IMG/VR virus record: IMGVR_UViG_3300006127_000025
Coordinates: 1 to 44,525 of that record
Source of the DNA: a virus
Lineage: Duplodnaviria > Caudoviricetes
Direction: 5' to 3' (one strand)
DNA: 44,525 bases
A program made the position numbers and the translations under genes. The notes under the pieces are model-generated. The model saw nothing but the letters and a program-made list of their open reading frames with translations. It had not been told where the DNA came from and did no database searches. Positions 3,291-44,525 of this stretch are shown here, in pieces; within the stretch, counting starts at the first letter, position 1; the number at the start of each line of letters is the position of its first letter.

Positions 3291-3291
3291 A

Positions 3292-13491: not shown

Positions 13492-13869
13492 TTAGGCAGT
13501 ATTTGCCGTAAAACTATTTGGGGGTGTTGGCCAAGTAACATTAATTAGTGTACCATATTCATCCACTTGAGGATTAGCAGTGTTTGGTAAATCTCTTAAT
13601 TGTTGCCGATATGTTATCCAAGAACTTTTATCTGGATGATTGTAATCCGATAGTCCCCATGGCATATCGCATTGAGATAATAAACTATTTCTTTTCCATC
13701 TTAATTGAGTCATTGCTGGAACTATTGGTGCAGGTAGCGGTGTGTTTCCTTGTGCTAACCATTGTTCATATAAATTCCAATCATATGGATTTGCAACTTT
13801 ATGAATAACCACATTACCTTCAATTAACACAATAATATTTGGATCATTATTAAATAATAGTTTATACAT
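13492..13869 (-). CDS. Tail fibre assembly chaperone-like protein
   Basis: LR..RN.LL...D, W..YRQQLRDLP and WP.PP motifs typical of phage tail assembly chaperones; also Y..WLAQGNTP.PA. Confidence 0.75.
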   Translation of the reverse strand: MYKLLFNNDPNIIVLIEGNVVIHKVANPYDWNLYEQWLAQGNTPLPAPIVPAMTQLRWKRNSLLSQCDMPWGLSDYNHPDKSSWITYRQQLRDLPNTANPQVDEYGTLINVTWPTPPNSFTANTA

Positions 13870-14485
13870 TTAATTTTCCTTCCAATTCACTCACACGTTT
13901 TCTTAAATCTTGAACTTCTGCCAATAATATAACAGATAATTTTTCATAATCAACATTACGAACAACTGGTTGTCCTAATTCTTCAATCGTAATTCCTAAT
14001 TCTGGTAAAACTTTTGCTGTATCTTCAGCAATAAGACCAATCTGTAATTCTGCCGCATTGTTTTTACCTAATTTTTTCCACTCATCTTTGTATTGATAAG
14101 TAACAGGTTTTAATAAATCAATTGCACCAGGAGTTGGTTTGTAATCTGTGATGTTTTGTTTGTATTCTTTAGAAGAACCGGAAGAATAAAATGAGCCTAC
14201 TACATGTAAATTATAACTTGGTGATTGTGTACCAATACCTAAAGCATTTGAATGATATCCTGTTGCACCCATTGAAGAATAAACCGCTTGATTACTACCA
14301 CCTTGCATAAACAAATATGGACTATTGGTTGCACTGCCGCCAGCATATTCTCTAAAAGTATAAGTATCTCCAGCTGTGATTGTTGATCCGTCCGCGCTGG
14401 TTGTTCCACGAAATACCATATAGTGGTAATTATCAAGATTACACCCATGTTGTGAATAACCACCTGAATTGTCCATAAAAGACAT
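13862..14485 (-). CDS. Short fibre-tip protein with C-terminal intramolecular chaperone (peptidase S74-like)
   Basis: SSKEYKQNI, L.PVTYQYK, IGLIAED..PEL and VDYEKL followed by a coiled coil; one GIGT.SP fibre motif; AGGAG SD. Confidence 0.75.
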   Translation of the reverse strand: MSFMDNSGGYSQHGCNLDNYHYMVFRGTTSADGSTITAGDTYTFREYAGGSATNSPYLFMQGGSNQAVYSSMGATGYHSNALGIGTQSPSYNLHVVGSFYSSGSSKEYKQNITDYKPTPGAIDLLKPVTYQYKDEWKKLGKNNAAELQIGLIAEDTAKVLPELGITIEELGQPVVRNVDYEKLSVILLAEVQDLRKRVSELEGKLNV

Positions 14486-14486
14486 A

Positions 14487-15602
14487 TTATTCTCCTACCT
14501 CAGTAATATTAAATTTATATTTTTTGCCTGTTATTCTATTAATTAAAAATAAATTAACATCACCCTCTTGTAATACCCAATGACCTCTTGTACCATCAAC
14601 TTCATTAGGAGCCAAACTTTCATCTGTGTTATCCATAATAATGTCGCCCGTTAGGAAGGCTGTTGCTGCGGCAGTTCCGTTAACGTGTAATGGATATGAT
14701 GGTGTTTTGCCAATACCCAATTGGCCACTTGTGTTGAGCGTCATAGCTAAACTGTTGTTTGTATACCATTGTTGTTGGCCACGAGTTAAATTATAACCAA
14801 GCCATTGTGTATTACCACTACCTGCACCACCCAACCAAAATTGAAGTCCTGCAGAGTTTGCAATGGAAGACATTGAATTTTTAATTGTACTATACTGCGC
14901 TGTGTTACCATTATATACAAAATTTAAACCTTCAGCAAAAGTACCATCAACACCGCCATTATAAACAGCTGCGGAACCATACACGGATAATTTTGAAGAT
15001 GTTAATTGAGATGTTCCACCTACCAATAAATTACCAGAAGAATCAATACGCATACGTTCAATAGCAGCAGAAGCAGCAGAACCATCATTAATTCTGAACA
15101 CCAATCTACCTTTATTTGTGGCTCCATCATATTCACCTGCTAAATTAACATAACGAACAGTTGCTGCACCAAAATCTAATATACCGCCTTGAGTTGAAGT
15201 ATTTCCATAAATTTCAATAGAACCATAACCACCAGCAGAATTGAAAACAGTAAGTGTGTTGTTTAATCCAGAGTTAATTGCTGGACTACTCGTTCCAATA
15301 CCCACTTGCTGATTTGAATTAATGTATAGAGCATTTGTATTAGCCGTCTGTAACGCTAATGTACTTGGTCCATTTAATATAGGACTGCTTACAGAAGTAC
15401 TTGTAATAATTGATGTATTAACAATCTCTTGATTAACTGTCGTGGTTGTACCTTGAACAACCAAGTTACCAGACATTGTTGTGGTACCAGAAAATACCAA
15501 ATTAGGTTGTAACTGAGCAGATGTAATTAGTCCAACAATACCTGTGTTAGCAACACCTGATGTTGGAGAAACTTCATTGGCGGTAATTAGTTGTTGAGAC
15601 AT
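14487..15602 (-). CDS. Modular tail fibre / RBP (371 aa)
   Basis: VGIGT.SP and ERMRIDSSGN fibre repeats; C-terminal NEVDGTRGHWVLQEG..LFLIN..GKKYKF motif of the type found at the ends of cyanophage fibres. Confidence 0.8.
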   Translation of the reverse strand: MSQQLITANEVSPTSGVANTGIVGLITSAQLQPNLVFSGTTTMSGNLVVQGTTTTVNQEIVNTSIITSTSVSSPILNGPSTLALQTANTNALYINSNQQVGIGTSSPAINSGLNNTLTVFNSAGGYGSIEIYGNTSTQGGILDFGAATVRYVNLAGEYDGATNKGRLVFRINDGSAASAAIERMRIDSSGNLLVGGTSQLTSSKLSVYGSAAVYNGGVDGTFAEGLNFVYNGNTAQYSTIKNSMSSIANSAGLQFWLGGAGSGNTQWLGYNLTRGQQQWYTNNSLAMTLNTSGQLGIGKTPSYPLHVNGTAAATAFLTGDIIMDNTDESLAPNEVDGTRGHWVLQEGDVNLFLINRITGKKYKFNITEVGE

Positions 15603-15614
15603 TTATTTTTTTAA

Positions 15615-15881
15615 TTAATTTGAAATTTGTTGAACCAATTGTTCTTGAGTTCTTTGGTAAGCGGATTTAATATCCACATTTAAAACAATTTCCTCATGTG
15701 TTGTACCAGCAATTGGCTGACCATTTTTTAACTGCTCTTGAACATGGTTATTTACAATTTCATCCATTGCAATTCTACAACGATTATGAACTGCATTATC
15801 AATCCATTCTTGTGCCGAATTGGCTACATAATGAATAGCTTTATCTTCTGCATCTGTTAATGTTACTGTATATGTTGCCAT
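15615..15881 (-). CDS. Small fibre-associated protein (partner of the 749-aa fibre)
   Basis: 88 aa with AAGGAA SD; QEWIDNAVHNRCRIA motif; function unknown. Confidence 0.7.
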   Translation of the reverse strand: MATYTVTLTDAEDKAIHYVANSAQEWIDNAVHNRCRIAMDEIVNNHVQEQLKNGQPIAGTTHEEIVLNVDIKSAYQRTQEQLVQQISN

Positions 15882-15895
15882 TTTATTTCCTTAAA

Positions 15896-18145
15896 TTATC
15901 CTATTAAAAATCCTGACCAGTAAGTGTGGCCACTATAAACATTTGGACTGGCAGAGCCAGTTCTTAAACCCATTTGTACATAATCATTTGCATTTAAGTA
16001 TATAATAAATGCCCAAGACATCATGGTTGAACTCGCAATCATCTGCAATGCGTCAGCGGGGTAGTATCCAGCCCCGTTTTTGTAGACTTGATAATTTGCA
16101 CCAGCAGTATTAAAATCATACACTTGGAACGTAAATGAATAATACCCTGCTACTGGAGCTGTAAACGTGCCATTACTATATCCAGAAGTTCTAGTTGAAG
16201 GTTGTGATGGTGTAGTAACAAGACCTCCACCAAAAGTTGAACCAGCGGTATAACTTCCACCGGTAACTGAAGAGAAAAATGAAGGTTGGTAAGGTGTTAA
16301 CACGGCGCCAGTACTTGTAATTGTTGCGCAATAATCAGGTGCTGCTATAGCTAATCTGAATTTAATACCAGTAGCACCATATGATGAACCTAAATATAAG
16401 TTTGTTCCATCATTAACCAAGTATCCAGCGGTTGAAGTTGAACCGTTAGGATTTAATTGGATACCTGTTGTGCCACTTGATTGAATGTTTAACTGAAAAT
16501 TACCTGATGAACATCCAATATTTAAATGTCCGCTAGAATCAAGACGCATCCGTTCTGCAATATTTGAGCCACCATTAGATGTTTCAAATAATAAAGCTCC
16601 AGCTTCAGAACCTGCTGTAGTTGTTGTGAATGCTCCCTGAATAGCAGCAAATCTAAATCTATTTGATGCACTATTTGGACCAGCAAAGTTTAGACCTGGA
16701 TTAGTTGTATATCCAGCCAAATACAAAGTATCGTAATCACCTTGAATCAAAGCATTTGGGTAAACTTGGCTTGACCCTGAGTAATATGTTGTGGATGTTG
16801 TAGTATTAACTAACACTTGACCAGACGAATTAATACGCATAGCTTCTGTCCCACCAACCAACCAGCGGTGGGCCAAAGGTACACCAGCATTATTAACGTA
16901 GGCAGAGTTATACCAAGCTCCTGTGCCATCTGTACCTATATTTAATGCCTGTGCTCCAGATCCAGAACCAAACACTACCGATCCTGTAGTCATGTTACCA
17001 GATGTAATTGGGCTTTGAGCTGATCCTTGATTTACTGACAAAACAGAAGTAGCTTGAGTAGCAGCAGATCCCACATATAAGTGGCTTCCATCAAAACTTA
17101 AATTAGCAGAACCAGCAAAACTGCCAGAGCTATTGTATTGTATATAATTATTTGAGCCGCCTGGGGTTACACCAGCAACAGCTGTGTATTGCAAACCAGT
17201 ACCAGTAGACTGCAAGAAATAACCAGAAGTACCAACTGTAGACAAGCCAGTACCACCATAAGCAACACCTAAAGCATTTGTTAGATTTAATGTTGGTAAA
17301 GTCCATGTACCACTAGAGTTTACAGAACCTAATGATGAACTACCCACACCACCATTATAGAATGTAAGACCTGCACCAGAACCAACAGAAATTCTTCCTG
17401 TGGATCCTGAATAATCCATTACAATACCAGATGTATATGATCCTAAAAATGCTCCTGTGGAATATAATCCATTGTTAGCAACTTCTGAATTAACATAAGT
17501 TGTGTTACCGGCAACAGTTAAGTTACCAGCAACTACCACGTTAGCGGCAAATGTTGATGTACCTGTAAATGTTAAATTAGAACTTAATTTGGCAGATGTA
17601 ATTGAAGCATCATTAGGAACTCCAATAGAAGTAAGTGCAATACCTTGAGCACGAATTCTAGTACCTGCTGGTGGAGTAAAGTTCAAATAAAGATTAGAAC
17701 CATTTACATAATAATCATATTGTACAACACCGTTTGCTGTAACAATTAATGAGTTAGAAGAAACCGGTGGAGCAACCAATGTGATTACGTTTTGTGTACC
17801 ATTGGTAATTGTGTTGGTTACAAATGTATTAGCAATTTGTAACGAGAGCATCGATTGTGTAATACTCTGTGAAGATGGCACATTCACCTGAGAAGCAATA
17901 CCAAGATAGTTCACTTCGATTGGGGAGTTGGCTGCTGGTGCTGCTGAGAGTATTAATTGATTACCAATTAGGTAGTATGCTGGATTGGTTGTCGAAGCAA
18001 CTTGTTTAACGCCACCAATATACACCAGAATCGATGTGGCGGATGCTGGAGTATATGATAAAGTAAATGTCGTAGATGTACCATCGCCTGTGAAATAATC
18101 CACAGGATAATTCATTGACGATAAAGGATTTCCTAGATAAGACAT
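15896..18145 (-). CDS. Modular tail fibre / RBP (749 aa) with two N-terminal beta domains and a C1q-like tip
   Basis: MSYLG..., FTGDG..TTFTL..V.IGGV.Q..Y domains; E.MRI.SSG repeats; C-terminal PSF...GTFTAPVAGYYSF...LNANDYV...WSGFLIG is C1q/TNF-like. Confidence 0.8.
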   Translation of the reverse strand: MSYLGNPLSSMNYPVDYFTGDGTSTTFTLSYTPASATSILVYIGGVKQVASTTNPAYYLIGNQLILSAAPAANSPIEVNYLGIASQVNVPSSQSITQSMLSLQIANTFVTNTITNGTQNVITLVAPPVSSNSLIVTANGVVQYDYYVNGSNLYLNFTPPAGTRIRAQGIALTSIGVPNDASITSAKLSSNLTFTGTSTFAANVVVAGNLTVAGNTTYVNSEVANNGLYSTGAFLGSYTSGIVMDYSGSTGRISVGSGAGLTFYNGGVGSSSLGSVNSSGTWTLPTLNLTNALGVAYGGTGLSTVGTSGYFLQSTGTGLQYTAVAGVTPGGSNNYIQYNSSGSFAGSANLSFDGSHLYVGSAATQATSVLSVNQGSAQSPITSGNMTTGSVVFGSGSGAQALNIGTDGTGAWYNSAYVNNAGVPLAHRWLVGGTEAMRINSSGQVLVNTTTSTTYYSGSSQVYPNALIQGDYDTLYLAGYTTNPGLNFAGPNSASNRFRFAAIQGAFTTTTAGSEAGALLFETSNGGSNIAERMRLDSSGHLNIGCSSGNFQLNIQSSGTTGIQLNPNGSTSTAGYLVNDGTNLYLGSSYGATGIKFRLAIAAPDYCATITSTGAVLTPYQPSFFSSVTGGSYTAGSTFGGGLVTTPSQPSTRTSGYSNGTFTAPVAGYYSFTFQVYDFNTAGANYQVYKNGAGYYPADALQMIASSTMMSWAFIIYLNANDYVQMGLRTGSASPNVYSGHTYWSGFLIG

Positions 18146-18152
18146 GTTTTAT

Positions 18153-18485
18153 TTATGGATTTAGTAGGTGTTGAATTTCATCTTCTGTTAAACCAAGAGC
18201 AGACAATTTTGTTTTAACTTCTTGTTTAGAATTTATTTTTGCTTGTTCAGCATCAATTATGGCTTGTTTTTTGGTTTCATTTACCACTACTTTTCCGTCA
18301 ATCAGTTCCCAAGCATTGAAATAAGTATGATCTTCTGGAAGTTCTGAATCTTCAATAATGATAGCGTGGTCAGGACAATCTTTAGCTAACACATCCTCAA
18401 TAGTATTATTTTCTAAAAACTCAGGAGAAGGATATGTAACGGAAACGCCGCCATTATCGTTTGTATGAATAATTATTTTAGCCAT
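18153..18485 (-). CDS. Small fibre-associated protein, chaperone-like (partner of the 604-aa fibre)
   Basis: 110 aa with AAGGA SD; KD.P....II...ELP.D..YFNAW motif. Confidence 0.7.
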   Translation of the reverse strand: MAKIIIHTNDNGGVSVTYPSPEFLENNTIEDVLAKDCPDHAIIIEDSELPEDHTYFNAWELIDGKVVVNETKKQAIIDAEQAKINSKQEVKTKLSALGLTEDEIQHLLNP

Positions 18486-18493
18486 TTTTATCC

Positions 18494-20308
18494 TTAAGCA
18501 AATACAGAAGCATATACATAATTTGAGTTAGAATATCCAGAAGTCCAAACAGCTACATCAAATCTAGTGGAACTAGGCGGATTATCACTATCTTGGTTAG
18601 CTGAAATGCCAACACCAGTATTTCCATTTGAATATGATGTTAAAGCTGATATTGCATAGTTGGCAGAAGCCATAGCGTTGGTAAAATTAAATGTATATCT
18701 TCCTGTGCTATTAACAGTAATACTTGAGCAATTGTAAGAAGCAAAAATAGAGCCAGCTGTTGTTTGGTTGCCACCTCCCCATTTAGCCCATGCTTTAGCA
18801 GTAGTTTTTGCATACACAATACCAGTAGCTGTATTTTGTGTAGTACCCCCAACAAATATGTTGCCAGATGGGTCAATACGCATATGCTCAGTACTATTGG
18901 AAGAAAATGCTAAATATGAACCTGATACAGTTGCACCAAATTTAAAATAACCTTGGTTTTGCGTTCCATCAACACTGCGTCTTAAAAAGAAATCAACATA
19001 AGGCCAACTGCCAGTAGATGTATTTCTATAGGCATATAATTGTATTTGGTCAGTATTTCCATCATTTGTAGCACTATTAAAAATGTATTGAATATTACCA
19101 ACCGTGTTACCTAATGTGGCAGTTAAAATATCCAAGTATGCACCCGGAGATGATTGGCCAATACCCACATATCCAGTAGAATTAATACGCATACGTTCTG
19201 CCGTGGTACCATTTGTACCTGTACTCGTTTTAAAGATTATATTAGTTGCTTGTTGAGTTAACTGTATACCTTCATTGTATGTGTTGTTATCATTTGTTCC
19301 AAGACTTAAATAACCACCATTACCCGATACTCCATATCCAGTAATTTGTCCACCATAGTTATTACCTAAAGTTGAATCACCAAAAGTTAATGTGGGTTTT
19401 GTGGATGAATAAAGATTTAATGTTGTTGATGGATTTACTATTCCAATACCAACATTTCCCGTTGCAGTAATTGAAACAGCTTCTGAACCATTGGCAAATA
19501 ATTGTGTACGATATGGACTTGGAGTTGTTCCTAATCCACCCATTCCTATACCATACATATTCGTACCACTACTCTCATAAAGAGCAATAGATTTACCTAT
19601 GTTAGCACCAAAAGATAATGGGAAATTTGCACTAGTAGAACCAATAGCAACGTTACCTGCAGAGGTGATACGCATTGCTTCTGTCCATGAAATGGAATTG
19701 CTTGCTGTTCCTGACGTAGCATATTGCCATACATGAGTACCAGAATATTGATAATATTGTGTTGCTGCGGCACTATTAATATATTTCCAACCGGAATTAT
19801 ATACCGCATTAGAATTTATTTCAATACCAGTACCTGCATTATTATCAATAGTAGCATATGCACCAATTTGAAGTGTTGTTCTTGTGGCGGTTGCTGGAGT
19901 TACACCAAGACCTAAATTTCCATTTGTATCAATTCTCATTCTCTCAGTAGAATTTTGTGAGAATATCAAAGGAGAGTTTACTGAACTCCAAACAAATGAA
20001 GCATTAGCAACACCAGTAAGTGTTCCTGAAGAACTATCAATACCAATTGCTGTGGCACCTGCTCCATTGTTAGAGATAAAATAAGATGTGTTTGTGCCTG
20101 TCGTAGATTTTGTTGACGTAATACCTGTTGGACCTTGAACATCCAATTGATATCCTGGTGTTGTCGTACCAATACCCACCTGATTACTGGAGTTCCAGTA
20201 AGGTGCTCCAATAGTCAGGTTTGTTTGAGTAATGGTATTTGCAGCAATATCAGAGGCAACAACGGTACCTGCTTGAATACTTGCTGCATTAATCTGCGAT
20301 ATGCTCAT
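18494..20308 (-). CDS. Modular tail fibre / RBP (604 aa) with AKAW-type tip
   Basis: Five to six E.MRI...GNVGIG repeats; C-terminal AKAW...I.ASYN.SSIT...TG.Y..NF..AM..ANY domain. Confidence 0.82.
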   Translation of the reverse strand: MSISQINAASIQAGTVVASDIAANTITQTNLTIGAPYWNSSNQVGIGTTTPGYQLDVQGPTGITSTKSTTGTNTSYFISNNGAGATAIGIDSSSGTLTGVANASFVWSSVNSPLIFSQNSTERMRIDTNGNLGLGVTPATATRTTLQIGAYATIDNNAGTGIEINSNAVYNSGWKYINSAAATQYYQYSGTHVWQYATSGTASNSISWTEAMRITSAGNVAIGSTSANFPLSFGANIGKSIALYESSGTNMYGIGMGGLGTTPSPYRTQLFANGSEAVSITATGNVGIGIVNPSTTLNLYSSTKPTLTFGDSTLGNNYGGQITGYGVSGNGGYLSLGTNDNNTYNEGIQLTQQATNIIFKTSTGTNGTTAERMRINSTGYVGIGQSSPGAYLDILTATLGNTVGNIQYIFNSATNDGNTDQIQLYAYRNTSTGSWPYVDFFLRRSVDGTQNQGYFKFGATVSGSYLAFSSNSTEHMRIDPSGNIFVGGTTQNTATGIVYAKTTAKAWAKWGGGNQTTAGSIFASYNCSSITVNSTGRYTFNFTNAMASANYAISALTSYSNGNTGVGISANQDSDNPPSSTRFDVAVWTSGYSNSNYVYASVFA

Positions 20309-20315
20309 CTATTTT

Positions 20316-20507
20316 TTAGTTTGGTGTTACGTCTGTTACTGTTGGTTGTGTAGGTGCTTGTGTCTGTTGTTGAGCTTGAACTTGTGGAATTGCTTGACCA
20401 CGAATCTTATCAACAACTGGACTTACCTGCGCATATGGCAATTGTCCAAGACCTTGCATAACTACATTAACTTCGTCTAAATTAAGGGTAATCGAAATAT
20501 CACTCAT
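20316..20507 (-). CDS. Small hypothetical protein (63 aa); likely start MSDISI at 20507
   Basis: GGAG SD precedes ATG 20507; the ORF-track start at 20531 has no SD. Confidence 0.7.
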   Translation of the reverse strand: MSDISITLNLDEVNVVMQGLGQLPYAQVSPVVDKIRGQAIPQVQAQQQTQAPTQPTVTDVTPN

Positions 20508-20526
20508 TTTAAATCTCCATAAATTT

Positions 20527-20590
20527 ACCATCTATTAAAAATAAACTTGTATAGGATGGTTGTCTAATACAAGTCTGTATATTATTTAGG
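20527..20590 (-). promoter_or_regulatory. Late-promoter variant CCTAAATA followed by a candidate pseudoknotted leader
   Basis: Promoter-like motif 20583-20590; stem 1 20545-20552/20567-20574; stem 2 20527-20532/20555-20560. Confidence 0.45.
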
Positions 20591-20635
20591 CTGTGTTAAA
20601 ACCGCTTAAGGTAAAGTATTTCTTGTGTTATTAAG

Positions 20636-21220
20636 TTATTTTTCCAAAAAATCAAAATTTATTACAATTCTTTGTTTATAATTTACTGGATTATTTCCAG
20701 CATGTATTCTGTGACCATCAAATAAAATTGCACTACCTTTTTTTGGAGTATTTCTTTTATATTCTGATATTTCTTTTGTTATTTCGGTGCTTTCGCCTAA
20801 AGTATAAAATTCGTTAAACAATACGGTATCTCCATCTGAATCATTAACATAATATACTAATGTTTTGTACGGAGAAGCTTCTGGTAAATCAACATGTGGT
20901 CTATTATATTTGTTTAAATTGTGTCCAATAATAGGTGTTGTTTTTCTAATTCTTATTCTTAATATTCTATTAAATTCAATATTAAATTTATCTTCCATAA
21001 AATATAATATGGATTTAAAAAAAGGATAATAATTTGAATTTACTCCATTATATGAATCATATATGGTATGTACCAATCCAAAAGATTCTGTTACTGCTGG
21101 ATTATTATAATCTCCTTTTGATATTTCATCATAAAAATACCAAGGAAAATTAATATCATTTAATGTATTTTCAATATCATTTTCATAGTGCTTCGATAAC
21201 AAATTTTCAATTACTTGCAT
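20636..21220 (-). CDS. 2OG-Fe(II) oxygenase superfamily protein
   Basis: FPWY, PHVD (HxD), YYVNDSDGDT.LF, FDG..IHAG (distal His) and RIVINF (2OG-binding Arg) motifs. Confidence 0.88.
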   Translation of the reverse strand: MQVIENLLSKHYENDIENTLNDINFPWYFYDEISKGDYNNPAVTESFGLVHTIYDSYNGVNSNYYPFFKSILYFMEDKFNIEFNRILRIRIRKTTPIIGHNLNKYNRPHVDLPEASPYKTLVYYVNDSDGDTVLFNEFYTLGESTEITKEISEYKRNTPKKGSAILFDGHRIHAGNNPVNYKQRIVINFDFLEK

Positions 21221-21221
21221 T

Positions 21222-21509
21222 TCAATCCCAATTTAATGTTTCATCATTCCATCTACGAACATATCTACCTCTGGTCATATCATGTCCTGGATATGGAATT
21301 GGAGGCTCCCAATTTATTCCATTTAATAACCATCCTCTATGTGGACATGGTGGTATAAAATTAGTACCATCCCATGTGTGTCCTACACTACCATAGTGGC
21401 CACGTGTTCCATCTTGAAAGGTTTGTATAAAATTACCTTCAGGTTTAACGTCATTAACAACAACATTAATTACAGTATTTGAAGAATCTATTTGAGACCA
21501 AAAGTACAT
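21222..21509 (-). CDS. Small fibre-associated protein (partner of the Gly-rich fibre)
   Basis: 95 aa; N.VINVVV, QT, FIPP.P...W.L....WEPPIPYP and WNDETLNW motifs. Confidence 0.72.
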   Translation of the reverse strand: MYFWSQIDSSNTVINVVVNDVKPEGNFIQTFQDGTRGHYGSVGHTWDGTNFIPPCPHRGWLLNGINWEPPIPYPGHDMTRGRYVRRWNDETLNWD

Positions 21510-21511
21510 TT

Positions 21512-23017: not shown

Positions 23018-23027
23018 GTCTTATTTA

Positions 23028-23360
23028 TTAAGGTTTAGGATATTGATTTTTGATTGCTTGTATTTGTGCTTTCCATGCATCATAACCACCATGATATAAA
23101 GTATCCAATTGGTCAACAATAGATGGGTAAGCCGCTTTGCGAGCATTACTGTAAATTGCCATGTGGTCAGATAAAGCTTGTTGAAATTCATCATGAGTCA
23201 ATTCACGAATACCTACTTCTTTTGTAACAGGATCGGTATCTTGTTTATGAATTACAAGTTCGTCCGGTACAACATATGATGTTTTACCTTCATAATCTCT
23301 ATGGTCGTCTGGACCAATAAGAAACATCGTTCCGTCTGGATTAAATACACATTTCATCAT
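23028..23360 (-). CDS. Small fibre-associated protein (partner of the 494-aa fibre)
   Basis: GGAGG SD at 23364-23368 supports a start at 23360 or 23357 (TAATG coupling); C-terminal R..AYPSI.DQLD.LYH...W...I..IK..YPKP motif. Confidence 0.72.
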   Translation of the reverse strand: MMKCVFNPDGTMFLIGPDDHRDYEGKTSYVVPDELVIHKQDTDPVTKEVGIRELTHDEFQQALSDHMAIYSNARKAAYPSIVDQLDTLYHGGYDAWKAQIQAIKNQYPKP

Positions 23361-24844: not shown

Positions 24845-24848
24845 TTAA

Positions 24849-25106
24849 TTATCCTAATTTTGATACTGAATTCGCTAGAGCAGCTTGATAATCAGCAATA
24901 GTCTCTGGTGTATGTACAGCAGCGCATACTGCTTTTACTCGGTCATCTTGTGTAGAGTAATCTTCACCTGGTGCAATAGTGAACCTGTGGTATGATGAAG
25001 ATAATTCTTTACCATCTTCCAAAATACGGGTACATTCTCTTACATGTACTACACCATTTTCTGAAATTTCTATTTTATCGTTTACTACTACTTTTTCTAA
25101 TGCCAT
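24849..25106 (-). CDS. Small fibre-associated protein (partner of the 615-aa fibre)
   Basis: 85 aa with AAGGAG SD; MALEK...DKIE....V.VR....I.EDG.ELS...HR...V.AVC.AVHT motif. Confidence 0.75.
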   Translation of the reverse strand: MALEKVVVNDKIEISENGVVHVRECTRILEDGKELSSSYHRFTIAPGEDYSTQDDRVKAVCAAVHTPETIADYQAALANSVSKLG

Positions 25107-25130
25107 TTTAAATCTCCTTTTTGTTGTCCG

Positions 25131-25150
25131 CCTAGTACATCCATACTAGG
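25131..25150 (-). promoter_or_regulatory. Leader hairpin with GGA in the loop
   Basis: CCTAGTA-TGGATG-TACTAGG, a perfect 7-bp stem with no U-tract on the minus strand, just upstream of the SD. Confidence 0.55.
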
Positions 25151-25154
25151 TATA

Positions 25155-27002
25155 TTAGAAAGATGCTTGATATGTATAAGTCATATAAAATCCAAAAGAA
25201 CCTACAGGAAGGGTGTTGGCGTTATCATATCTCCATAATCCTACTGATGTTCCTCCTCCCGTTACATTAAGACCCCAAAAATATCCAGTTTGATTCCACT
25301 CTCTAGCAATACCACTGGATGAACCAACCGAAGCACAAGTAAATGGTAAATTATTAATTGTAGGATTTGCAGTTCCACTTGCAGCAGTTCCAGAAACGGA
25401 AATATTTACTGTTACAATTCTTCCTATTTTTGTATATGTTGCTGTTTGAGTTAAACCGGAAACGCCTCCGCCAGTTGAACTCCAAGTTGGTGTCCATGTA
25501 CCTGTTTCATAATCGTTCAGTACCGAATTATTTAAAGCTGAACTATTATTAAATTGAATCCCACCTGTTGTAGAAGATAATTGCAATACTCCACCAGCAG
25601 TCAAAGTCATAATCTGAGATGCGTTTGCTGTTGCACTTGTACCTTGTGTTCCAGGAAGAACGGTTGACCATTGGTGTATTCCAGCATTTCTGTTTATAGA
25701 ATAATATGCGCCAGGTCCGGTTGCTGCATAATTTATACCACCAGAAGAATTAATATAAAAATTATTTCCAATAAATGTATACAATCCGCCAGTATTGACC
25801 GAAAAAGATGATGTAGTACCCAATTGAAATACGGAATATCCTGATTGCCAACTTAATGGTGCGCCTCCAAGTCCTAAATTACCAGAAGAATCTAATCGCA
25901 TCTTCTCGCCTTCACCACCGGCATTAAAAACTATATTACCACCACTAGAATCGGAGTTATTTGACGTGAATAATAAACTACCTCCTCTAAATTCCATTGG
26001 ATAGTTTTGAGAATATGCATCATTAGTTGAAGCAATAGAAACACCATTGGCAAAATTAACAGGACCACCAAAAACAAGATTTTGATTTGTTGTGGCGTTG
26101 ACGTGTAATTTACCTCTTGGTGATGTAGTACCAATACCTAAACTACCACCGGAAGTTAAAGTCATCAAAGCTGTTGTTGCTGGCCCACCATTATAGAATG
26201 TAAGTCCGTCTCCGCCACCAACACTTATTCTTCCATTACCCGTCACATAGTCCATCACAATACCATCTGTGTAGGTACCTGTGAAATTATTTGAAGAATA
26301 TAATCCGTTATTAGCTTTAATACTACCTGTAATAGAAGTATTGCCTGAAATAATAGGAAGAATTGTACTACCAGTCAATGTTAAATTACTGGCTAACTTA
26401 GAGTTGGTTACCGAACCATCTACTGGTACTATACTTGTACCAACAACAGAGTTTTGAACCACACGAATAGTTGAATTGGCTGCTGGTGCTGATGTGAATG
26501 TAAGTGTTGCTCCATTTGTTGAATAATTTGCTGGAGAACCTTGTGTAATTCCGTTAACCGTTACATAACAAGAATTAGAAGATACTGCTGCTTGTGTTAA
26601 TGTAAAAGTAACTGTTGAACCATCACCGGTAAATGTACTTACCAATGGATTCAATAAACTATTTGATAATTGCCATGGTTGAATTGTATTTGCCGCAATG
26701 GCAGACATTGTAACTGTGTTGGCACCAGGAGCAATACCAGATTGAACCATCTGACGATATACAACATAAATGTTATTTGTACCTGAAGTTGGAGCACCAG
26801 TAAATGTAAGTGTGTTTAGATTACTTACATAATAAGCAACACCTGGATCCTGAATAACGTTATTAACAACTACTTGAATATCAGCATTAGCGGATACTTG
26901 GCGTGATAGTGTAAATGTGGTTGTAACACCATCACCATTAAAATGGTCATAAGCTGTAGAACCATATTGGAAGGAGTCTGGTCTTGCGCCTAAGAAGCTC
27001 AT
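25155..27002 (-). CDS. Modular tail fibre / RBP (615 aa) with two N-terminal beta domains
   Basis: MSFLG..., two F.GDG.T.TFTL domains, LGIGTTSP/EKMRLDSSGN repeats, and a C-terminal LNDYETGTWTP...YTKIGR.V...NLPF tip. Confidence 0.82.
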   Translation of the reverse strand: MSFLGARPDSFQYGSTAYDHFNGDGVTTTFTLSRQVSANADIQVVVNNVIQDPGVAYYVSNLNTLTFTGAPTSGTNNIYVVYRQMVQSGIAPGANTVTMSAIAANTIQPWQLSNSLLNPLVSTFTGDGSTVTFTLTQAAVSSNSCYVTVNGITQGSPANYSTNGATLTFTSAPAANSTIRVVQNSVVGTSIVPVDGSVTNSKLASNLTLTGSTILPIISGNTSITGSIKANNGLYSSNNFTGTYTDGIVMDYVTGNGRISVGGGDGLTFYNGGPATTALMTLTSGGSLGIGTTSPRGKLHVNATTNQNLVFGGPVNFANGVSIASTNDAYSQNYPMEFRGGSLLFTSNNSDSSGGNIVFNAGGEGEKMRLDSSGNLGLGGAPLSWQSGYSVFQLGTTSSFSVNTGGLYTFIGNNFYINSSGGINYAATGPGAYYSINRNAGIHQWSTVLPGTQGTSATANASQIMTLTAGGVLQLSSTTGGIQFNNSSALNNSVLNDYETGTWTPTWSSTGGGVSGLTQTATYTKIGRIVTVNISVSGTAASGTANPTINNLPFTCASVGSSSGIAREWNQTGYFWGLNVTGGGTSVGLWRYDNANTLPVGSFGFYMTYTYQASF

Positions 27003-27337
27003 GAGATTTCCAGAACGCTGAGTATTGCATCTGCTGAACCAGCAACAGATGAAGATACCTGAATTGAATCACTTGCTTTAAGAACCATCTTTTGATCACC
27101 ACCAATTACAACAATAGTACCACCAATAGGTACTGTAGCATTTGTTACAATATATGTTGGAGTATATGAGTTGGCAGAATCTAAAACGTAAGCAGAAACT
27201 TGAATAGTATTTGATGTAGTTCTATTGGCAATAGAAAGTCCAATCACCGTTGACTGTGTAGCCAAAGGTGTTTGGTAGACTGTCGTATTGGCGGTACCAA
27301 TACTAGGTTTTAGACTGTTACGGAAGTTGTTGGACAT
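26999..27337 (-). CDS. Small beta-rich virion protein, putative fibre adaptor
   Basis: 112 aa; MSNNFRN, VIGLSIAN, VPIGGT, GDQKMVL..SD and DAILSVLEIS motifs; ATGA-coupled to the 615-aa fibre. Confidence 0.72.
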   Translation of the reverse strand: MSNNFRNSLKPSIGTANTTVYQTPLATQSTVIGLSIANRTTSNTIQVSAYVLDSANSYTPTYIVTNATVPIGGTIVVIGGDQKMVLKASDSIQVSSSVAGSADAILSVLEIS

Positions 27338-27361
27338 TTTTTATTATCTCATATAATGTTA

Positions 27362-27369
27362 TATTTATG
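27362..27369 (-). promoter_or_regulatory. Late promoter variant CATAAATA heading the fibre array
   Basis: NATAAATA in the gap upstream of the 112-aa gene. Confidence 0.65.
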
Positions 27370-27372
27370 TTA

Positions 27373-30300
27373 TTAACCTAAAGCAATACTGAATGCCAAA
27401 GCGGTAGAGACGGCTATGTAAACAGCATTAGAAGTTGCCAATGTGTTTGCTGCATTAGAGGAAACAGAACTACTTGTGGCCACGATTGTCGAACTATCAG
27501 GGAATTGAATTGCTGTACATGCTGCTACGGTACCAGTTACATTCAAATTATTATTGATGGTTAAGGCACCAGTCATGGTATCACCGGCACGCTGTACTGC
27601 TGTATTAGCAATAGAACCTACTAAGTTTGCCTGAAAGTATGCTGATGTGGCCAATGAGTTGGCTGCATTGGCCTGTACAAATGCTGCATTGGCTTGAATG
27701 TAAGCCGCATTAGCCTGTATGTAAGCAGAGTTACTATTGGTGTAAGCCGCCTGAGCAGAATTGGTTGCCGCATTTGCTTGAGCATATGCAGCTGCCGTAT
27801 AAGCAAATGAATGAGCATTAGTTGTTTGAATGGTGCCATCAGGGAATCGTAAGTAACTCGTTGCACCATTAATTAGAACATTACCTACATGACTTGTGTT
27901 ACCATTGATTGCCAATGATGATGTAGTAATAGAATCGGCAAAGAGATTACCTTTAACTGCGGCACCACCAATAACTTGTAGAGCACCAGAAGTATTACTG
28001 GTTGAGGAAGTACCAGTTTCAATAATCAAATACTTACCAGTATTATTGAATCTCATTACCTCATTGGCAGCCAAGAAACCACCAGTTGCCCATACCATAT
28101 CACCGACAGCAGAAGTGGAATCGGTAGCAAATACTAAGTTACCACCAGCACCTGAACTTGCCACAGCACCAGTGAAAATGTATCCATCTTGTGGTTTGGT
28201 GATTGTAAAGTTAGGGTCAGCAAAAGAAGAACCGGCGATACCCATATCGACCCAACCATGGTCATTTAATGGTCCTGGATAGGTGTCGACATAAGCAATA
28301 TAGTCCGCAGAACCTGTGTTGGATCCTCCATTCAGGAGTGCTGCTTGAGTATAGTATTGTCCTGCTGTACCTGTTGTTGCCACACCTTTCATTACCAAAG
28401 CAGGGTTGGTAATATTGGTATTGAAAGCATTATTACCAATATATGTGGTATTGGCAATTACAACATAACTATTGTGGTATGTGTTACCACTAAATGTAGA
28501 ACCACCAGTAACAGTTAAGGCAGTAGAACTATTACTATTAGCAATATTCAAACGACCAGTCATTGTATCGCCAGCACGGAGTACGGCAGTATTGGCTAAG
28601 TTATAAGATGCCTGTGCTGAGTTAGTTGCTGCATTTGCCTGAGCATATCCTGATGTGGCGTAAGTATTAGTATTATTTGCCTGTAAGAATGCTGCGTTAG
28701 CGTATGCTGATACGGTATTGGCTAAATTATAACCAGATTGTGCAGAGTTTGTGGCAGCATTAGCCTGAGCATACGCACTAGTTGCATAAGTGTTTGTGTT
28801 GTTTGCTTGTAAGAATGCTGCGTTAGCATAAGCAGACACCGTATTAGCAAGGTTGTATCCTGACTGAGCAGAAGCAGTTGCTGCATTAGCTTGTGCGTAA
28901 CCACTAGTTGCATATGTATTGGTATTATTAGCCTGTAAATAAGCGGCATTAGCATATGCCGATACTGTATTTGCCAGATTATATCCAGACTGTGCTGAAG
29001 CTGCCGCAGCGTTTGCTTGAGCAAAAGCAGCAGTAATATTGGCGTTAGCAGTAGTTACATAACCTTGTAGTAAAGTAATGTTGGTGTTCTGAGTATTATC
29101 TACGCCTTGAATATATGCTAAGTTTGTATTGGCAGTATTGTATGCCTGATTGGCTTGAGCAAAAGCGGCATTTGCCTGTATGTAAGCCGAGTTACTATTG
29201 TTATAGGCATATTGTGCTGAGTTTGTAGCAGCATTAGCCTGTAGATATGCTGCGTTAGCAGTTGTACTAACAGTATTAGCTAAATTATATCCAGACTGAG
29301 CAGAATTGGTTGCTGCATTAGCTTGCAGGTAAGCCGCATTGGCTGTGGTACTTACAGTATTTGCTAGGTTATATCCAGATTGAGCAGAGTTCGTAGCCGC
29401 ATTGGCTTGTAAGTAAGCCGCATTGGATGTAGTAGAAACGGTATTTGCTAGGTTATATGCTGAGTTGGCTTCAGTAGAAATATTGTTAGCAAAATTGTAT
29501 ACTGATTGAGCAGAATTGGTGGCAGCATTGGCCTGTAGGTATGCTGCGTTAGCAGTCGTACTAACTGTATTAGCCAAATTATATGCTGAGTTTGCCTCTG
29601 TTGAAATATTATTGGCAAAGTTGTATACTGATTGTGCTGAATTTGTGGCAGCATTTGCTTGAGCATATGCAGTTGTGGCATACTGATTAGTTAAATTGGC
29701 CTGATTGTATGCTGCGGTTGAGTAAGCAAATAATTCTAGGCCATTAATATTGGCAGTAGGACTGTTGATGCCACCAGTAGTAATAGAATCATAAGTGATA
29801 TTTGCTTCAGTCCAATTGATTACCGATGTAGGTTCAGTAGATACATTGCTAAAGAATACCCAATTACCATTGTTATGATTACGAACAACACCAGTATGTT
29901 GATAATGACTTGGTACACCACCAACAAAGTGACCCACAATACCAATATCAACCACATTCGATGAGTTATTACCAGCAAGGTAGATAATTGAATTACCTAC
30001 GTTAGCAGAATTAACTTCATAATATGTTAGGTTACCAGAAATACTGACGTTACCTGAAACAGCTAAATCTTTACTAATAGTAACAGAACCAGTAATTGTT
30101 CCACCAGCAGAAGCAAATTTAGTATTTGCATTATCATAGGCAGCCTGTGCTGAGTTGGTTGCTGCGTTAGCCTGTAGATAAGCGGCATTAGCCGTGGTAC
30201 TTACTGTATTTGCTAGGTTATAACCAGACTGAGCAGATGCTGTAGCGGCATTCGCTTGAGCATATCCAGAAGTAGCATAAGTGTTGGTTAAATTTGCTTG

Positions 30301-32196
30301 GTTATATGCTGCATTGGCAGTTGTTGAAACAGTATTGGCTAAATCATATGCTGCGTTAGCATGTAATGAGATATTGTTAGCAAAGTTATAAACTGATTGA
30401 GCCGAGTTAGTGGCAGCATTGGCTTGCAAATAAGCCGCATTAGCGGTTGTACTTACAGTATTGGCAAGATTATATGATGAGTTTGCTTCAGTTGATATAT
30501 TGTTGGCAAAGTTGTATACAGACTGTGCTGATGCTGTGGCTGCATTGGCCTGTAAATAGGCAGCGTTTGCTGTAGTTGATACAGTATTTGCCAGGTTATA
30601 TGCTGAGTTGGCTTCTGTCGATACTGTGTTGGCCAAATCATATGATGCATTAGCATGTGTTGAAATATTATTAGCAAAGTTGTATACTGATTGTGCTGAA
30701 GCTGCTGCAGCATTCGCCTGGTTATATCCAAAAGTTGCATATATGGTTAATTGTGCAGTTGTTACGTTTTGAGCATTATCAACACCTTGTATGTAAGTAA
30801 GTGTTGAATTGGCAGTATTTAAACCACCAGTAATGTATACAGTATTTGCTGCAGCTGTATTAGCGGCATTATAGGCAGCTTGTGCTGAATTAGTTCCAGC
30901 ATTTGCTTGGAGATAAGCTGCATTAGAATTGGTATAAGCAAATTGAGCAGAGTTGGTTGCCGCATTAGCTTGTAGATAAGCAGCATTGGCAGTTGTACTG
31001 ACTGTATTGGCCAAATTATATGCCGAATTAGCTTCAGTAGAAATGTTGTTAGCAAAGTTGTATACAGATTGTGCTGAATTTGTTGCAGCATTTGCCTGAG
31101 CATAACCTGATGTAGCGTATGTATTGGTAATATTTGCTTGGTTATAAGCAGAAGCCGCATAGGTATTAACAGCAACCACGTTGGCATTAATAGTATTCGT
31201 TACAATTTGGAAGTAAATAATATTGGCTGCCAAGTTGGCAGTTGTAGTATTTGCTTGATTGTAACCTGATGTGGCGTAAGTATTTACAGCAATAATCTGT
31301 GTATTTTGTGTAGTATTAACACCTACCTGATATGCCGTATTAGCTGCAATCTGACTTACTGCTGAGTTTGCATTATTATATGCCGCTTGAGCAGAATTAG
31401 TTGCTGCATTGGCTTGAGCATATCCAGACACAGCATATTGGTTTGTTGCATTTGCCTGAGCATATGCTGAATTAGCATATTGATTTGCTGCGTTTGCTTG
31501 TACAAAAGCCGCATTAGCTTGAATATAGGCAGAATTTGAATTATAATAAGCGGCAGAAGCAGATGCTGTGGCTGCATTAGCTTGTAAGTAAGCAGAATTA
31601 GCAGTAGTAGAATCTGTATTGGCTAATTGATATGCTGCATTGGCTTGAATAAAAGCGGCATTAGCATCAGTATAGGCTGCTTGAGCAGAAGCCGTAGCTG
31701 CATTAGCCTGAGCATAAGCTGCATTTGCTGTAGTTGAAACAGTATTTGCTAGATTATACGCAGAAGTTGCATATGTATTAGTATTGTTTGCTTGTAAAAA
31801 AGCAGCATTAGCATATGCACTTACCGTATTTGCTAAATTATAACCAGATTGAGCAGAAGCCGTAGCAGCGTTGGCTTGATTGTATCCGGCTTGTGCTGAG
31901 TTGGTAGCAGCATTTGCTTGTGTATAGGCGACATTACTATTTGTATAAGCAAATTGTGCAGAATGTGTTGCGGCATTTGCTTGGTCAAAAGCATCTTGAA
32001 TAACTACGTTCTGGCCAGCATTAACTTCAATCAGATTGAGAATATAAGATTCACCACCAATTGGAATAATCTCATTATTTGCATCTCCAATAAACAAAGT
32101 ATTGGATTTAAACGAATACGCTAAAGCACCGTCTGCTAAAGTGGTCGGTACATTCGATGTATACGACCGGAGTATCTGTATGACTGTATTGGACAC
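27373..32196 (-). CDS. Long fibre/stalk protein (1607 aa) with Ala/Asn heptad repeats
   Basis: N-terminal IQILRS...P..LADGALAY fibre-anchor motif (Mtd-N / long-tail-fibre-like); dozens of AYxQANA repeats; three G(D/G)T(M/I)TG fibre motifs; C-terminal ALAFSIALG. Confidence 0.8.
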   Translation of the reverse strand: MSNTVIQILRSYTSNVPTTLADGALAYSFKSNTLFIGDANNEIIPIGGESYILNLIEVNAGQNVVIQDAFDQANAATHSAQFAYTNSNVAYTQANAATNSAQAGYNQANAATASAQSGYNLANTVSAYANAAFLQANNTNTYATSAYNLANTVSTTANAAYAQANAATASAQAAYTDANAAFIQANAAYQLANTDSTTANSAYLQANAATASASAAYYNSNSAYIQANAAFVQANAANQYANSAYAQANATNQYAVSGYAQANAATNSAQAAYNNANSAVSQIAANTAYQVGVNTTQNTQIIAVNTYATSGYNQANTTTANLAANIIYFQIVTNTINANVVAVNTYAASAYNQANITNTYATSGYAQANAATNSAQSVYNFANNISTEANSAYNLANTVSTTANAAYLQANAATNSAQFAYTNSNAAYLQANAGTNSAQAAYNAANTAAANTVYITGGLNTANSTLTYIQGVDNAQNVTTAQLTIYATFGYNQANAAAASAQSVYNFANNISTHANASYDLANTVSTEANSAYNLANTVSTTANAAYLQANAATASAQSVYNFANNISTEANSSYNLANTVSTTANAAYLQANAATNSAQSVYNFANNISLHANAAYDLANTVSTTANAAYNQANLTNTYATSGYAQANAATASAQSGYNLANTVSTTANAAYLQANAATNSAQAAYDNANTKFASAGGTITGSVTISKDLAVSGNVSISGNLTYYEVNSANVGNSIIYLAGNNSSNVVDIGIVGHFVGGVPSHYQHTGVVRNHNNGNWVFFSNVSTEPTSVINWTEANITYDSITTGGINSPTANINGLELFAYSTAAYNQANLTNQYATTAYAQANAATNSAQSVYNFANNISTEANSAYNLANTVSTTANAAYLQANAATNSAQSVYNFANNISTEANSAYNLANTVSTTSNAAYLQANAATNSAQSGYNLANTVSTTANAAYLQANAATNSAQSGYNLANTVSTTANAAYLQANAATNSAQYAYNNSNSAYIQANAAFAQANQAYNTANTNLAYIQGVDNTQNTNITLLQGYVTTANANITAAFAQANAAAASAQSGYNLANTVSAYANAAYLQANNTNTYATSGYAQANAATASAQSGYNLANTVSAYANAAFLQANNTNTYATSAYAQANAATNSAQSGYNLANTVSAYANAAFLQANNTNTYATSGYAQANAATNSAQASYNLANTAVLRAGDTMTGRLNIANSNSSTALTVTGGSTFSGNTYHNSYVVIANTTYIGNNAFNTNITNPALVMKGVATTGTAGQYYTQAALLNGGSNTGSADYIAYVDTYPGPLNDHGWVDMGIAGSSFADPNFTITKPQDGYIFTGAVASSGAGGNLVFATDSTSAVGDMVWATGGFLAANEVMRFNNTGKYLIIETGTSSTSNTSGALQVIGGAAVKGNLFADSITTSSLAINGNTSHVGNVLINGATSYLRFPDGTIQTTNAHSFAYTAAAYAQANAATNSAQAAYTNSNSAYIQANAAYIQANAAFVQANAANSLATSAYFQANLVGSIANTAVQRAGDTMTGALTINNNLNVTGTVAACTAIQFPDSSTIVATSSSVSSNAANTLATSNAVYIAVSTALAFSIALG
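28590..32000 (-). repeat. Coding degenerate 42/84-bp tandem repeats in two blocks (about 28590-29720 and 30120-32000)
   Basis: Unit ATNSAQSGYNLANTVSTTANAAYLQANA and variants; boundaries approximate. Confidence 0.85.
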
Positions 32197-32421
32197 TTAA
32201 AAGAACCCCGCATCGATGTTGGTAATTAATGAACCTGCTGGTGAAAGTACAAAAGAATTGGTATTTGCTTGATATGCGATAACATCAAGGTTAATACCAC
32301 CAGTTCCATTAAAGTCCGCAGCACCTTTGATGGTGTTTTTACCACCATAACTGATTGAATTTACTCTTGGATTTGTTGCTGATCCAACTTGGACATTGAC
32401 TGTCCCAATGACTTGTCCCAT
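32197..32421 (-). CDS. Small hypothetical virion protein
   Basis: 74 aa, abutting both neighbours; ends IDAGFF, resembling the (I/L)DGG.F fibre-junction motif. Confidence 0.65.
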   Translation of the reverse strand: MGQVIGTVNVQVGSATNPRVNSISYGGKNTIKGAADFNGTGGINLDVIAYQANTNSFVLSPAGSLITNIDAGFF

Positions 32422-32784
32422 TTATTGCTCCAAAATTTTAGTGCTGATAATGTTAGTAACACCAGGCGCCACTTCAGCAATTCCTTCTAAAATTCTGGTT
32501 ACATTTTGGGATGGATCAATAATAATGGTATCATAAACATAACGACCTGGAGAAATATTTGCTGTGGTCGGTGCATCCAACTGTAAAGTGATTGTTCCTG
32601 AACCTGAATTAATAGTGGTGGAAAATGTTGCTGTAACATTTGATGTATAATAGGAATGCTTCAATTGAGCTTTAGCTATATAACCAGACAAGTCGAATAT
32701 ATTATTATATACATCATCCAAAGTAATGGACGTTGAATATGTTGTTCCTTGTTCGATGTACAGGTCTTGGTAGGCTGCCGGCAT
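32422..32784 (-). CDS. Virion structural protein, possibly a fibre-attachment/collar beta-sandwich (LtfC/BppU-like)
   Basis: IEQG.T, DLSGY.A.AQ, G.I.L.L....T and GRYVYD...R.LEG...V.PGV motifs. Confidence 0.65.
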   Translation of the reverse strand: MPAAYQDLYIEQGTTYSTSITLDDVYNNIFDLSGYIAKAQLKHSYYTSNVTATFSTTINSGSGTITLQLDAPTTANISPGRYVYDTIIIDPSQNVTRILEGIAEVAPGVTNIISTKILEQ

Positions 32785-32844: not shown

Positions 32845-32927
32845 AAAAGTAAAATCGCTTTTTGGAGTCTTGGATTTCATCTCCGGAATTTGGAGGCCGG
32901 AACGCAAAAAATCGAAATTTTACTTTT
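32845..32927. other. Candidate structured intergenic element (long imperfect inverted repeat with inner stems)
   Basis: AAAAGTAAAAT 32845-32855 pairs with ATTTTACTTTT 32917-32927; GC-rich interior. Confidence 0.45.
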
Positions 32928-44524: not shown

Positions 44525-44525
44525 G

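Follow-up and report, generated by a model that had tools for sequence, protein, structure and literature searches.

Organisation of the fibre block

The window analysed here is the entire 44,525-nt virus record IMGVR_UViG_3300006127_000025 (Caudoviricetes; ~27 % complete), within which a block of fibre genes probably encodes a branched host-recognition fibre. The phage is uncultured, and the system is known here from genes, profiles and models. The window covers the structural region of a T4-like myophage, with every gene on the minus strand, and matches to Pfam and PHROG families gave the order gp8 wedge, 2115-amino acid (aa) DUF4815 protein, fibre block, neck, sheath stabiliser and terminase, followed by sheath, tube, portal, protease and scaffold. 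The contractile tail that it encodes is T4-like (sheath, tube, gp8 and gp13–15).

The fibre block (Table 1) encodes a 1607-aa stalk of Ala/Asn heptads (in 86 of 110 cases, neighbouring AN dipeptides are spaced by a multiple of 7) that ends in the peptide ALAFSIALG, hereafter the plug, followed by a 112-aa beta protein, hereafter the adaptor, and six fibres of two classes. Class A fibres (A615 and A749) start with the tag MS(F/Y)LG and each carry two small beta domains, while class B fibres (B494, B501, B604 and B371) carry none and start with a short peptide such as MALTQI. A first-pass annotation of the window, made from the sequence alone, had described these open reading frames (ORFs) with their sizes, starts, motifs and order (A, B, B, B, A, B). 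All were present on the minus strand, the stalk end and the beta protein behind it were confirmed, and a profile search with the small domain (the G profile, below) bore out its distribution between the two classes. The annotation omitted the small gene that follows most fibres, a 207-aa S74 tip and 125-aa chaperone at the end of the block, and 120-aa and 74-aa genes before the stalk. The MSQQLI start of B371 falls outside the class B pattern, and a match of four domains to four class B fibres requires its inclusion by eye; the same start occurs in loci L219 and L221, and the relative L219 has the same four class B starts and four G domains.

Shaft repeats are common to the fibres, whereas the tips differ (C1q in A749, Gly-rich in B501). 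Among 40 relatives of A615, the first 215 aa were 41–95 % identical, and the C-terminal part could be aligned over 100 aa in only seven. The block has the several receptor-binding protein (RBP) genes, conserved N-termini and variable C-terminal heads that characterise branched RBP systems. Pfam and PHROG searches returned no beta-helix depolymerase family for any of the six fibres, the matches being to tail fibre, C1q and Gly-rich families.

The plug and the adaptor are linked across phages

A set of 159 loci was picked by the 112-aa profile alone, leaving 61 after dereplication at 90 % identity, two of them without upstream sequence. An AIALG-type end was encoded directly upstream of the adaptor in 53/59 loci, compared with 2/1547 other ORFs of loci of the same kind. 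In the reverse direction, 120 loci were picked only by DNA for AxAIALG followed by a stop, and 64 were retained once 50 truncated loci, two unscored loci and duplicates had been dropped; the adaptor was the next gene in 58/64, lay elsewhere in the locus in one and was absent from five. The first-pass annotation had proposed a chain of plug, adaptor and tag, and gene order in both directions supports the linkage part of that proposal, suggesting that the plug binds the adaptor.

The plug ends unrelated proteins of 62–1607 aa and was found in cultured phages of different build (CRP-9, HMO-2011, HTVC100P, HTVC026P, Melnitz, Ochrobactrum OC, Rhizobium TM30 and Yersinia GN1). In podoviruses, it is the annotated tail fibre itself that ends in the plug (CRP-9 gp47, HTVC100P gp43 and HMO-2011 gp43).

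The AlphaFold2 (AF2) model of the adaptor is a nine-strand jelly roll (predicted local distance difference test score, pLDDT, 95). Its best solved match in fold is the trimeric cement protein of KHP40 (7dou; Z 10.1, root mean square deviation 2.8, 103 residues aligned, 16 % identity), followed by a spore pilus subunit (Z 9.4) and the HFTV1 turret (Z 9.2). A further 174 viral models matched at E <0.001, several of them named virion structural protein. Foldseek against PDB gave only generic jelly rolls, the ESM Atlas only unnamed viral clusters, and a PDB sequence search with the adaptor nothing useful. Two longer proteins were considered as natural adaptor fusions; both look like read-through into the next gene and were not used.

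The gene after the adaptor in the 61 loci carried a YIG-like tag in 45, a MGKSKD start in three and another start in nine, and was missing in four. YIG genes numbered two per locus in 18 of 44 loci (the commonest state), one in 13, none in ten and more than two in three. These counts are consistent with an adaptor that would hold the MS(F/Y)LG-tagged hub fibres, presumably two hubs on one adaptor in the window.

Other joints of this kind were also seen. Genes ending in DGG.F were followed by a gene with an IQ.KR-type start in 19 of 30 distinct cases (strict pattern). A second plug–adaptor pair consists of genes ending KAIAMAIVFG(G) followed by a 118–137-aa gene starting MAAPNIV or MANPNIV (L219, 9015–10071; L277, L239, L280, L096, L136 and L142); in the same set of loci, genes ending FDDxFLxGGM precede a MARxYKILGQ gene, and some of all these genes match the adaptor profile. 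Melnitz has two adaptors in series, its YIG hub itself ending in AIALG (L018, 11368–16559), and a third plug gene directly before gp13 (26098–26313), a deeper tree than that of the window; its G domains number seven. In HTVC100P, an endonuclease gene is inserted between the plug and adaptor genes (L016, 11582–11986), and a similar small gene lies in L043, upstream of 9998.

Small beta domains co-occur with specific N-terminal peptides

In other phages, the class A domain falls into two subtypes, G (F.GDG..T.FTL, as in the window) and Q (FTATAGQT.F), with the G region matching 64 phage records and the Q region 90. The first 98 loci yielded the hypothesis that MALSKI-type starts (class B) accompany G and that MSKARDLA-type starts (K) accompany Q. 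In 60 dereplicated loci, each with 5 kb or more of downstream sequence, G was associated with B (p=6e-7, two-by-two counts 18/11/1/30) and Q with K (p=5e-7, counts 16/8/2/34), while the cross pairs G–K and Q–B were not linked (p=0.26–0.41). Domain and peptide counts rose together (Spearman 0.66 for G and B, 0.68 for Q and K), and B exceeded G in only 4/60 loci.

Since the patterns were derived from part of these loci, three further checks were made. Held-out adaptor loci (n=41) retained both associations (p=0.006 for G–B, p=0.0003 for Q–K). Among independent pairs on the adaptor tree, the direction B to G scored 5.6 in favour and 0.2 against (p ~0.03) and the direction G to B gave p ~0.06, with no trend in the cross pairs inspected.

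The third check used new loci, chosen only by peptide DNA (MAL[ST]KI for B, M[ST]KARDLA for K) and scored with profiles fixed beforehand. Filtering left 18 of 118 K loci and 25 of 114 B loci, the remainder being dropped for having less than 4 kb upstream (61 and 56), for being short (17 and 12), as duplicates (15 and 5) or as internal matches (7 and 16). The first scoring found Q in 18/18 and G in 2/18 K loci, and G in 14/25 and Q in 1/25 B loci. In a sensitive search with N-terminal anchors set aside, Q was present in 17/18 K loci vs 1/25 B loci (p=7e-10), and G in 14/25 B loci vs 1/18 K loci (p=9e-4). The adaptor was present in only 5/18 K loci and 9/25 B loci, suggesting that the joint between domain and peptide is a module of its own.

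A predicted interface between a G domain and a class B peptide

A 3:3 complex was modelled from three copies each of A615 residues 10–105 and B604 residues 2–38, a pair chosen by likeness to loci L026 and L043. The models scored 0.83, 0.81 and 0.83, and the best of three controls 0.02. The score mark was reached by 116/157 solved complexes and 2/215 mismatched pairs, counts that hold only roughly because the present job is 3:3 with its own alignments. The runs agreed in 100 % of contacts, with a partner pLDDT of at least 81. Peptide residues 2–7 and 9–10 are predicted to contact domain residues 46–52, 55–57, 67–69, 71–72, 74 and 77, which include the most conserved columns of the domain (out of 63: Q51, 59; Y57, 56; P71, 55; F67, 54; V49, 53).

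The first-pass annotation had taken class A domains to be docking sites for class B peptides and had suggested modelling the two together. The confident interface predicted for this one pair (G domain 1 of A615 with B604) and the independent co-occurrence test both support that proposal.

Probable origin and spread of the putative docking domain

The putative docking domain appears to be related to the N-terminal anchor of T7-type fibres. G domain 1 of A615 falls just under the cut-off of the T7 gp17 N-terminal family (PF03906, E 2.9e-5, 24.2 bits vs a cut-off of 25.2), and the G profile matches T7-type anchors in P-SSP7 gp17 (residues 5–73, E 2e-12) and HTVC011P (residues 6–66, E 5e-11). Because of these matches, the predicted socket of the G domain is likely a reused anchor barrel. 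In the window, the domains are tandem or internal in the fibres of a phage with a contractile tail, a setting that differs from the adaptor-and-nozzle anchoring of podoviruses.

Internal copies also occur in cultured phages. P-SCSP1u gp28 has an anchor and an internal G domain at residues 586–652 (internal copy at 574–673, E 4e-14, in a PDB profile search) with a 426-aa MGLTKI gene downstream. The main fibre of S-RIP2 has an anchor and an internal G (1059–1127), with a MALTQV fibre gene downstream, and HTVC011P has an anchor, an internal Q (451–519) and a MTKARDL fibre gene.

No sequence match linked G to T4 gp10 or XD domains, and no gp10 or TSP4 chain was among the best 60 PDB profile matches; a PDB sequence search with the N-terminus of A615 alone gave nothing useful. 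Antibody light chains among the G matches were rejected as chance hits through the string FSGSGSGT. Residues 91–246 of a capsule K1-specific depolymerase (PDB 9k4a, an entry with no paper tied to it) contain two copies of the small domain family (E 2e-12), so the socket may also be used in depolymerase systems.

Proposed assembly and alternative explanations

We think it probable that the block encodes a branched host-recognition fibre consisting of a stalk, plug, adaptor, two hubs and four branches, with six tagged tips. The AIALG tail of the stalk would plug into the adaptor, which would hold the tagged hub fibres A615 and A749, and each hub G domain would bind the first ten residues of one class B fibre. 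In the model, all three N-terminal peptides of a class B trimer are held by the three G domains of a hub trimer, at the conserved surface V-N-x-V-x-Q-x-P...Y...F-T-x-A-P. Four G domains and four class B genes would thereby give a full tree of six tagged tips, each with a different C-terminal head, and tips could be swapped by recombination with the joints untouched. Attachment to the tail, receptor binding and the assignment of individual G domains to individual class B fibres are what we infer from this arrangement.

Several observations weigh against the branched tree, which is read from genes and models. The close relatives L221/L222 and L003 carry the adaptor with no plug directly upstream, and in another, L002, a class B gene directly follows the adaptor. 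A G domain occurs with no class B gene in 11/29 G loci, so either G has other uses or the class B pattern misses peptides. Likewise, 11/25 B-picked loci lacked G; approximately seven of these look by eye like chance matches in non-fibre genes, and L457, L474, L487 and L500 seem to carry genuine class B genes, with weak G matches in two of these loci. The held-out signal fades as near-copies of training loci are removed (n=29, p=0.044 for G–B and 0.0096 for Q–K; n=24 at an 80 % cut, not significant). Co-occurrence of the gene classes across phages, put forward in the first-pass annotation as a check, was seen for both pairs in the peptide-picked loci and fades in the strictest held-out set. The adaptor tree holds only 7–9 independent pairs, and Q–K reached only p ~0.38 on it. 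The G profile matches T7-type anchors too, and P-SSP7 has a weak internal G (E 2e-4) with no canonical class B start behind it. Finally, the score calibration is unlike the 3:3 job, and close cousins of the partner also pass, leaving the predicted complex silent on specificity.

The alternatives differ in how much of the tree they would change. The joints may be real with fibres competing for fewer sites, such that only some of the six tips would be present per particle or stalk (e.g. one hub per adaptor, or G domain 1 only). We consider this unlikely: although one adaptor gene serves two hub genes here, the number of YIG genes varies between loci and the complex model covers only one G domain with one peptide, the co-variation of domain and peptide counts in the 60 loci is what one site per fibre predicts. 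It is more doubtful still that the block decorates the head or neck, with the 112-aa protein as a subunit of capsid cement or collar and the fibres placed on the head or as whiskers rather than as branches at the tail tip. Capsid cement, pilus and turret proteins are the best fold matches of the adaptor, the block lies just before neck gene gp13, in what we take from gene order to be the T4 fibritin slot, and some AIALG genes directly precede gp13 (L109, L163, L180 and Melnitz). However, the Z values are typical of the common jelly roll and podovirus plugs end annotated tail fibres, and a head or neck location would alter only the root of the tree, with the G–peptide joint unaffected.

We give very little credence to the idea that G domains serve solely for anchoring, like the N-terminus of T7 gp17, and that tags co-occur as cassettes inherited together, with class B fibres mounted elsewhere. 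The profile matches between G and the T7 anchor family, the binding of the P-SCSP1u N-terminal barrel to tail adaptor and nozzle (as given in the available part of PMC10575957) and the few independent pairs on the adaptor tree would fit it. Against this, internal G or Q copies lie 350–680 residues along their fibres, and a number of these fibres have a distinct anchor as well, the match of subtype to peptide spans unrelated phage groups, and the model sets the conserved peptide exactly on conserved G residues.

The first-pass annotation further had the branched fibre stand in place of T4 gp9–12. This holds by gene position only, since the related phage Melnitz shares the layout and still has, upstream of its gp8, a match to the N-terminal part of gp9/10. 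No gp9/10 homologue was detected in the window or in two relatives, all of which are genome fragments of 16–27 %, leaving Melnitz as the one of four records with a gp9/10-N match; a search for gp11 gave no match anywhere, controls included.

Other features of the window

The coordinates of the fibre block are collected in Table 1. A PDB sequence search returned no solved relative of the 120-aa LtfC-like protein. Small genes like the 85-aa gene after A615 are present, by eye, in the fibre blocks of P-SCSP1u and S-RIP2. The 2OG-Fe(II) oxygenase gene adjoins the Gly-rich fibre B501 and its small partner, and L219 has a gene of similar size after its own Gly-rich fibre; the enzyme might modify fibre proteins.

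Table 1. Features of the fibre block, with positions in the window
Feature	Position	Strand	Evidence
120-aa LtfC/T5 p132-like beta-sandwich; candidate collar at fibre root	32422..32784	-	Pfam LtfC E 0.002, below cut-off; phrog_3304 'L-shaped tail fiber protein assembly' E 2e-17
74-aa linker ending IDAGFF; candidate plug for stalk N-terminal IQILR module	32197..32421	-	Sequence
1607-aa Ala/Asn heptad stalk, GTG start, two beta inserts	27373..32196	-	phrog_33642 tail fiber assembly E 5e-8
ALAFSIALG plug, C-terminal end of stalk	27376..27402	-	Sequence; gene linkage across loci
112-aa jelly-roll adaptor	26999..27337	-	AF2 fold; phrog_1276
Class A hub fibre A615 (615 aa): MSFLG tag, two G domains, shaft, tip	25155..27002	-	Sequence; G profile
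G domain 1 of A615, residues 18–83; predicted socket residues 46–57 and 67–77	26754..26951	-	Complex model; profile
G domain 2 of A615, residues 121–184	26451..26642	-	Profile
85-aa small gene after A615; likely tip partner or chaperone	24849..25106	-	phrog_6228 E 1e-19
Class B fibre B494 (494 aa), MSLQQI	23360..24844	-	phrog_18345 tail fiber E 2e-11
110-aa small gene after B494; likely chaperone	23028..23360	-	phrog_9114 E 1e-14
Class B fibre B501 (501 aa), MALTQI, Gly-rich tip	21512..23017	-	Pfam Gly_rich_2 E 2e-14
95-aa small gene after Gly-rich fibre B501	21222..21509	-	phrog_7759 E 4e-10
194-aa 2OG-Fe(II) oxygenase inside fibre block	20636..21220	-	Pfam PF13640 E 1e-4
71-aa small gene	20316..20531	-	No Pfam or PHROG family
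Class B fibre B604 (604 aa), MSISQI; residues 2–10 predicted docking peptide	18494..20308	-	Complex model; phrog_18345 E 1e-18
110-aa small gene after B604	18153..18485	-	No Pfam or PHROG family
Class A hub fibre A749 (749 aa): MSYLG tag, two G domains (15–81, 112–168), shaft, C1q tip	15896..18145	-	Pfam C1q E 1.5e-6; profile
88-aa small gene after A749	15615..15881	-	No Pfam or PHROG family
Class B fibre B371 (371 aa), MSQQLI, atypical peptide	14487..15602	-	phrog_892 tail fiber E 2e-5
207-aa fibre tip with S74 intramolecular chaperone, no class A/B tag; possibly distal piece of B371	13862..14485	-	Pfam PF13884 E 7e-10
125-aa tail fibre assembly chaperone	13492..13869	-	Pfam PF16778 E 9e-12

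Outside the tag system, a 723-aa fibre with an S74 chaperone is encoded at 32920–35091, and L222 has a 2212-aa version of it directly before its adaptor, with no plug. A second Ala/Asn heptad stalk lies directly upstream of gp8 (43067–44525), where an apparent 335-aa ORF is the last part of a longer gene that runs past the edge of the window; relatives have a 521–828-aa gene in this slot. Between the portal and prohead protease genes (2709–3825), tandem paralogues of 193 and 177 aa share the motifs Y.VL.DT and RGQFN and matched no Pfam or PHROG family.

Implications

In phages of SAR11, Prochlorococcus, Roseobacter and methylotrophs, fibre genes annotated as 'hypothetical' come in long runs, with no place on the particle assigned to them. 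A tag code would tell which of these genes encode host-binding tips, how many are present per particle and where they attach. It would also explain the exchange of tips among podo-, sipho- and myoviruses and make host-range evolution testable with short peptides in harmless cultured phages. We judge the odds to be even that a small repertoire of orthogonal plug-and-socket codes (AIALG with the jelly-roll adaptor, YIG with the adaptor, MALSKI with G, MTKARDLA with Q and DGG.F with IQ.KR) is common to aquatic tailed phages of each of the three tail types and reuses the T7 anchor barrel as a branch socket, such that the wiring of an entire adsorption tree could be read from gene ends, and that model phages such as P-SCSP1u, S-RIP2 and HTVC011P have a second fibre that has escaped notice, mounted on the unresolved distal fibre.

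Comparison with known systems

Literature searches turned up no account of the AIALG plug, of the adaptor or of the G/Q peptides, with most subscription journals and supplements outside the search, and no virion proteome of a carrier phage was found, again with supplements outside the search. The available part of PMC12014285 concerns other phages.

T5 p132/LtfC forms the collar for L-shaped fibres; the 120-aa protein encoded before the stalk matches it weakly, below the Pfam cut-off, and the particle of the window is T4-like. The N-terminal anchor of T7 gp17 and P-SCSP1u gp28 (PF03906; PDB 8i4m) appears by profile to belong to the same domain family as G, but according to the accessible text of PMC10575957 it binds the tail adaptor and nozzle, whereas G is proposed here as a branch socket. 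The same text describes the distal fibre of P-SCSP1u as unresolved by cryo-electron microscopy; the internal G copy lies in that part.

The dual-RBP Klebsiella podophages of the KP32, K11 and KP34 type resemble the window in that a domain of the primary fibre holds a short N-terminal peptide of the secondary fibre. In the part of PMC13352976 available, the branching domain and conserved peptide are proven partners, with modelled contacts at RBP2 residues 2–6, compared with class B residues 2–10 in the window. Unlike the KP32 type, the socket of the window matches the T7 gp17 anchor family, has two subtypes with separate peptides and is present in four copies below a plug–adaptor joint, and its tips have fibre, C1q or Gly-rich heads, among which the family searches showed no beta-helix depolymerase.

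The myoviruses CBA120 and other Ackermannviridae (TSP1–4, PMC11414711), RaK2/phiK64-1 (PMC10253068) and phiKp24 (PMC9700779) likewise have hub RBPs with several small N-terminal domains for secondary RBPs, in tiers. As far as the accessible portions of these papers describe, CBA120, RaK2 and phiKp24 use T4 gp10-like XD domains that bind folded TD1/D1 head domains, together with depolymerase tailspikes; in the window, the predicted partner is instead a ten-residue peptide, and stalk and adaptor are separate. The likeness to CBA120 drawn in the first-pass annotation stands in logic, the socket matching the T7 gp17 N-terminal family and not T4 gp10/XD by sequence. The fibre block likely works in the manner of KP32 and CBA120 branching with different components, as a widespread variant of a known branched-fibre design.

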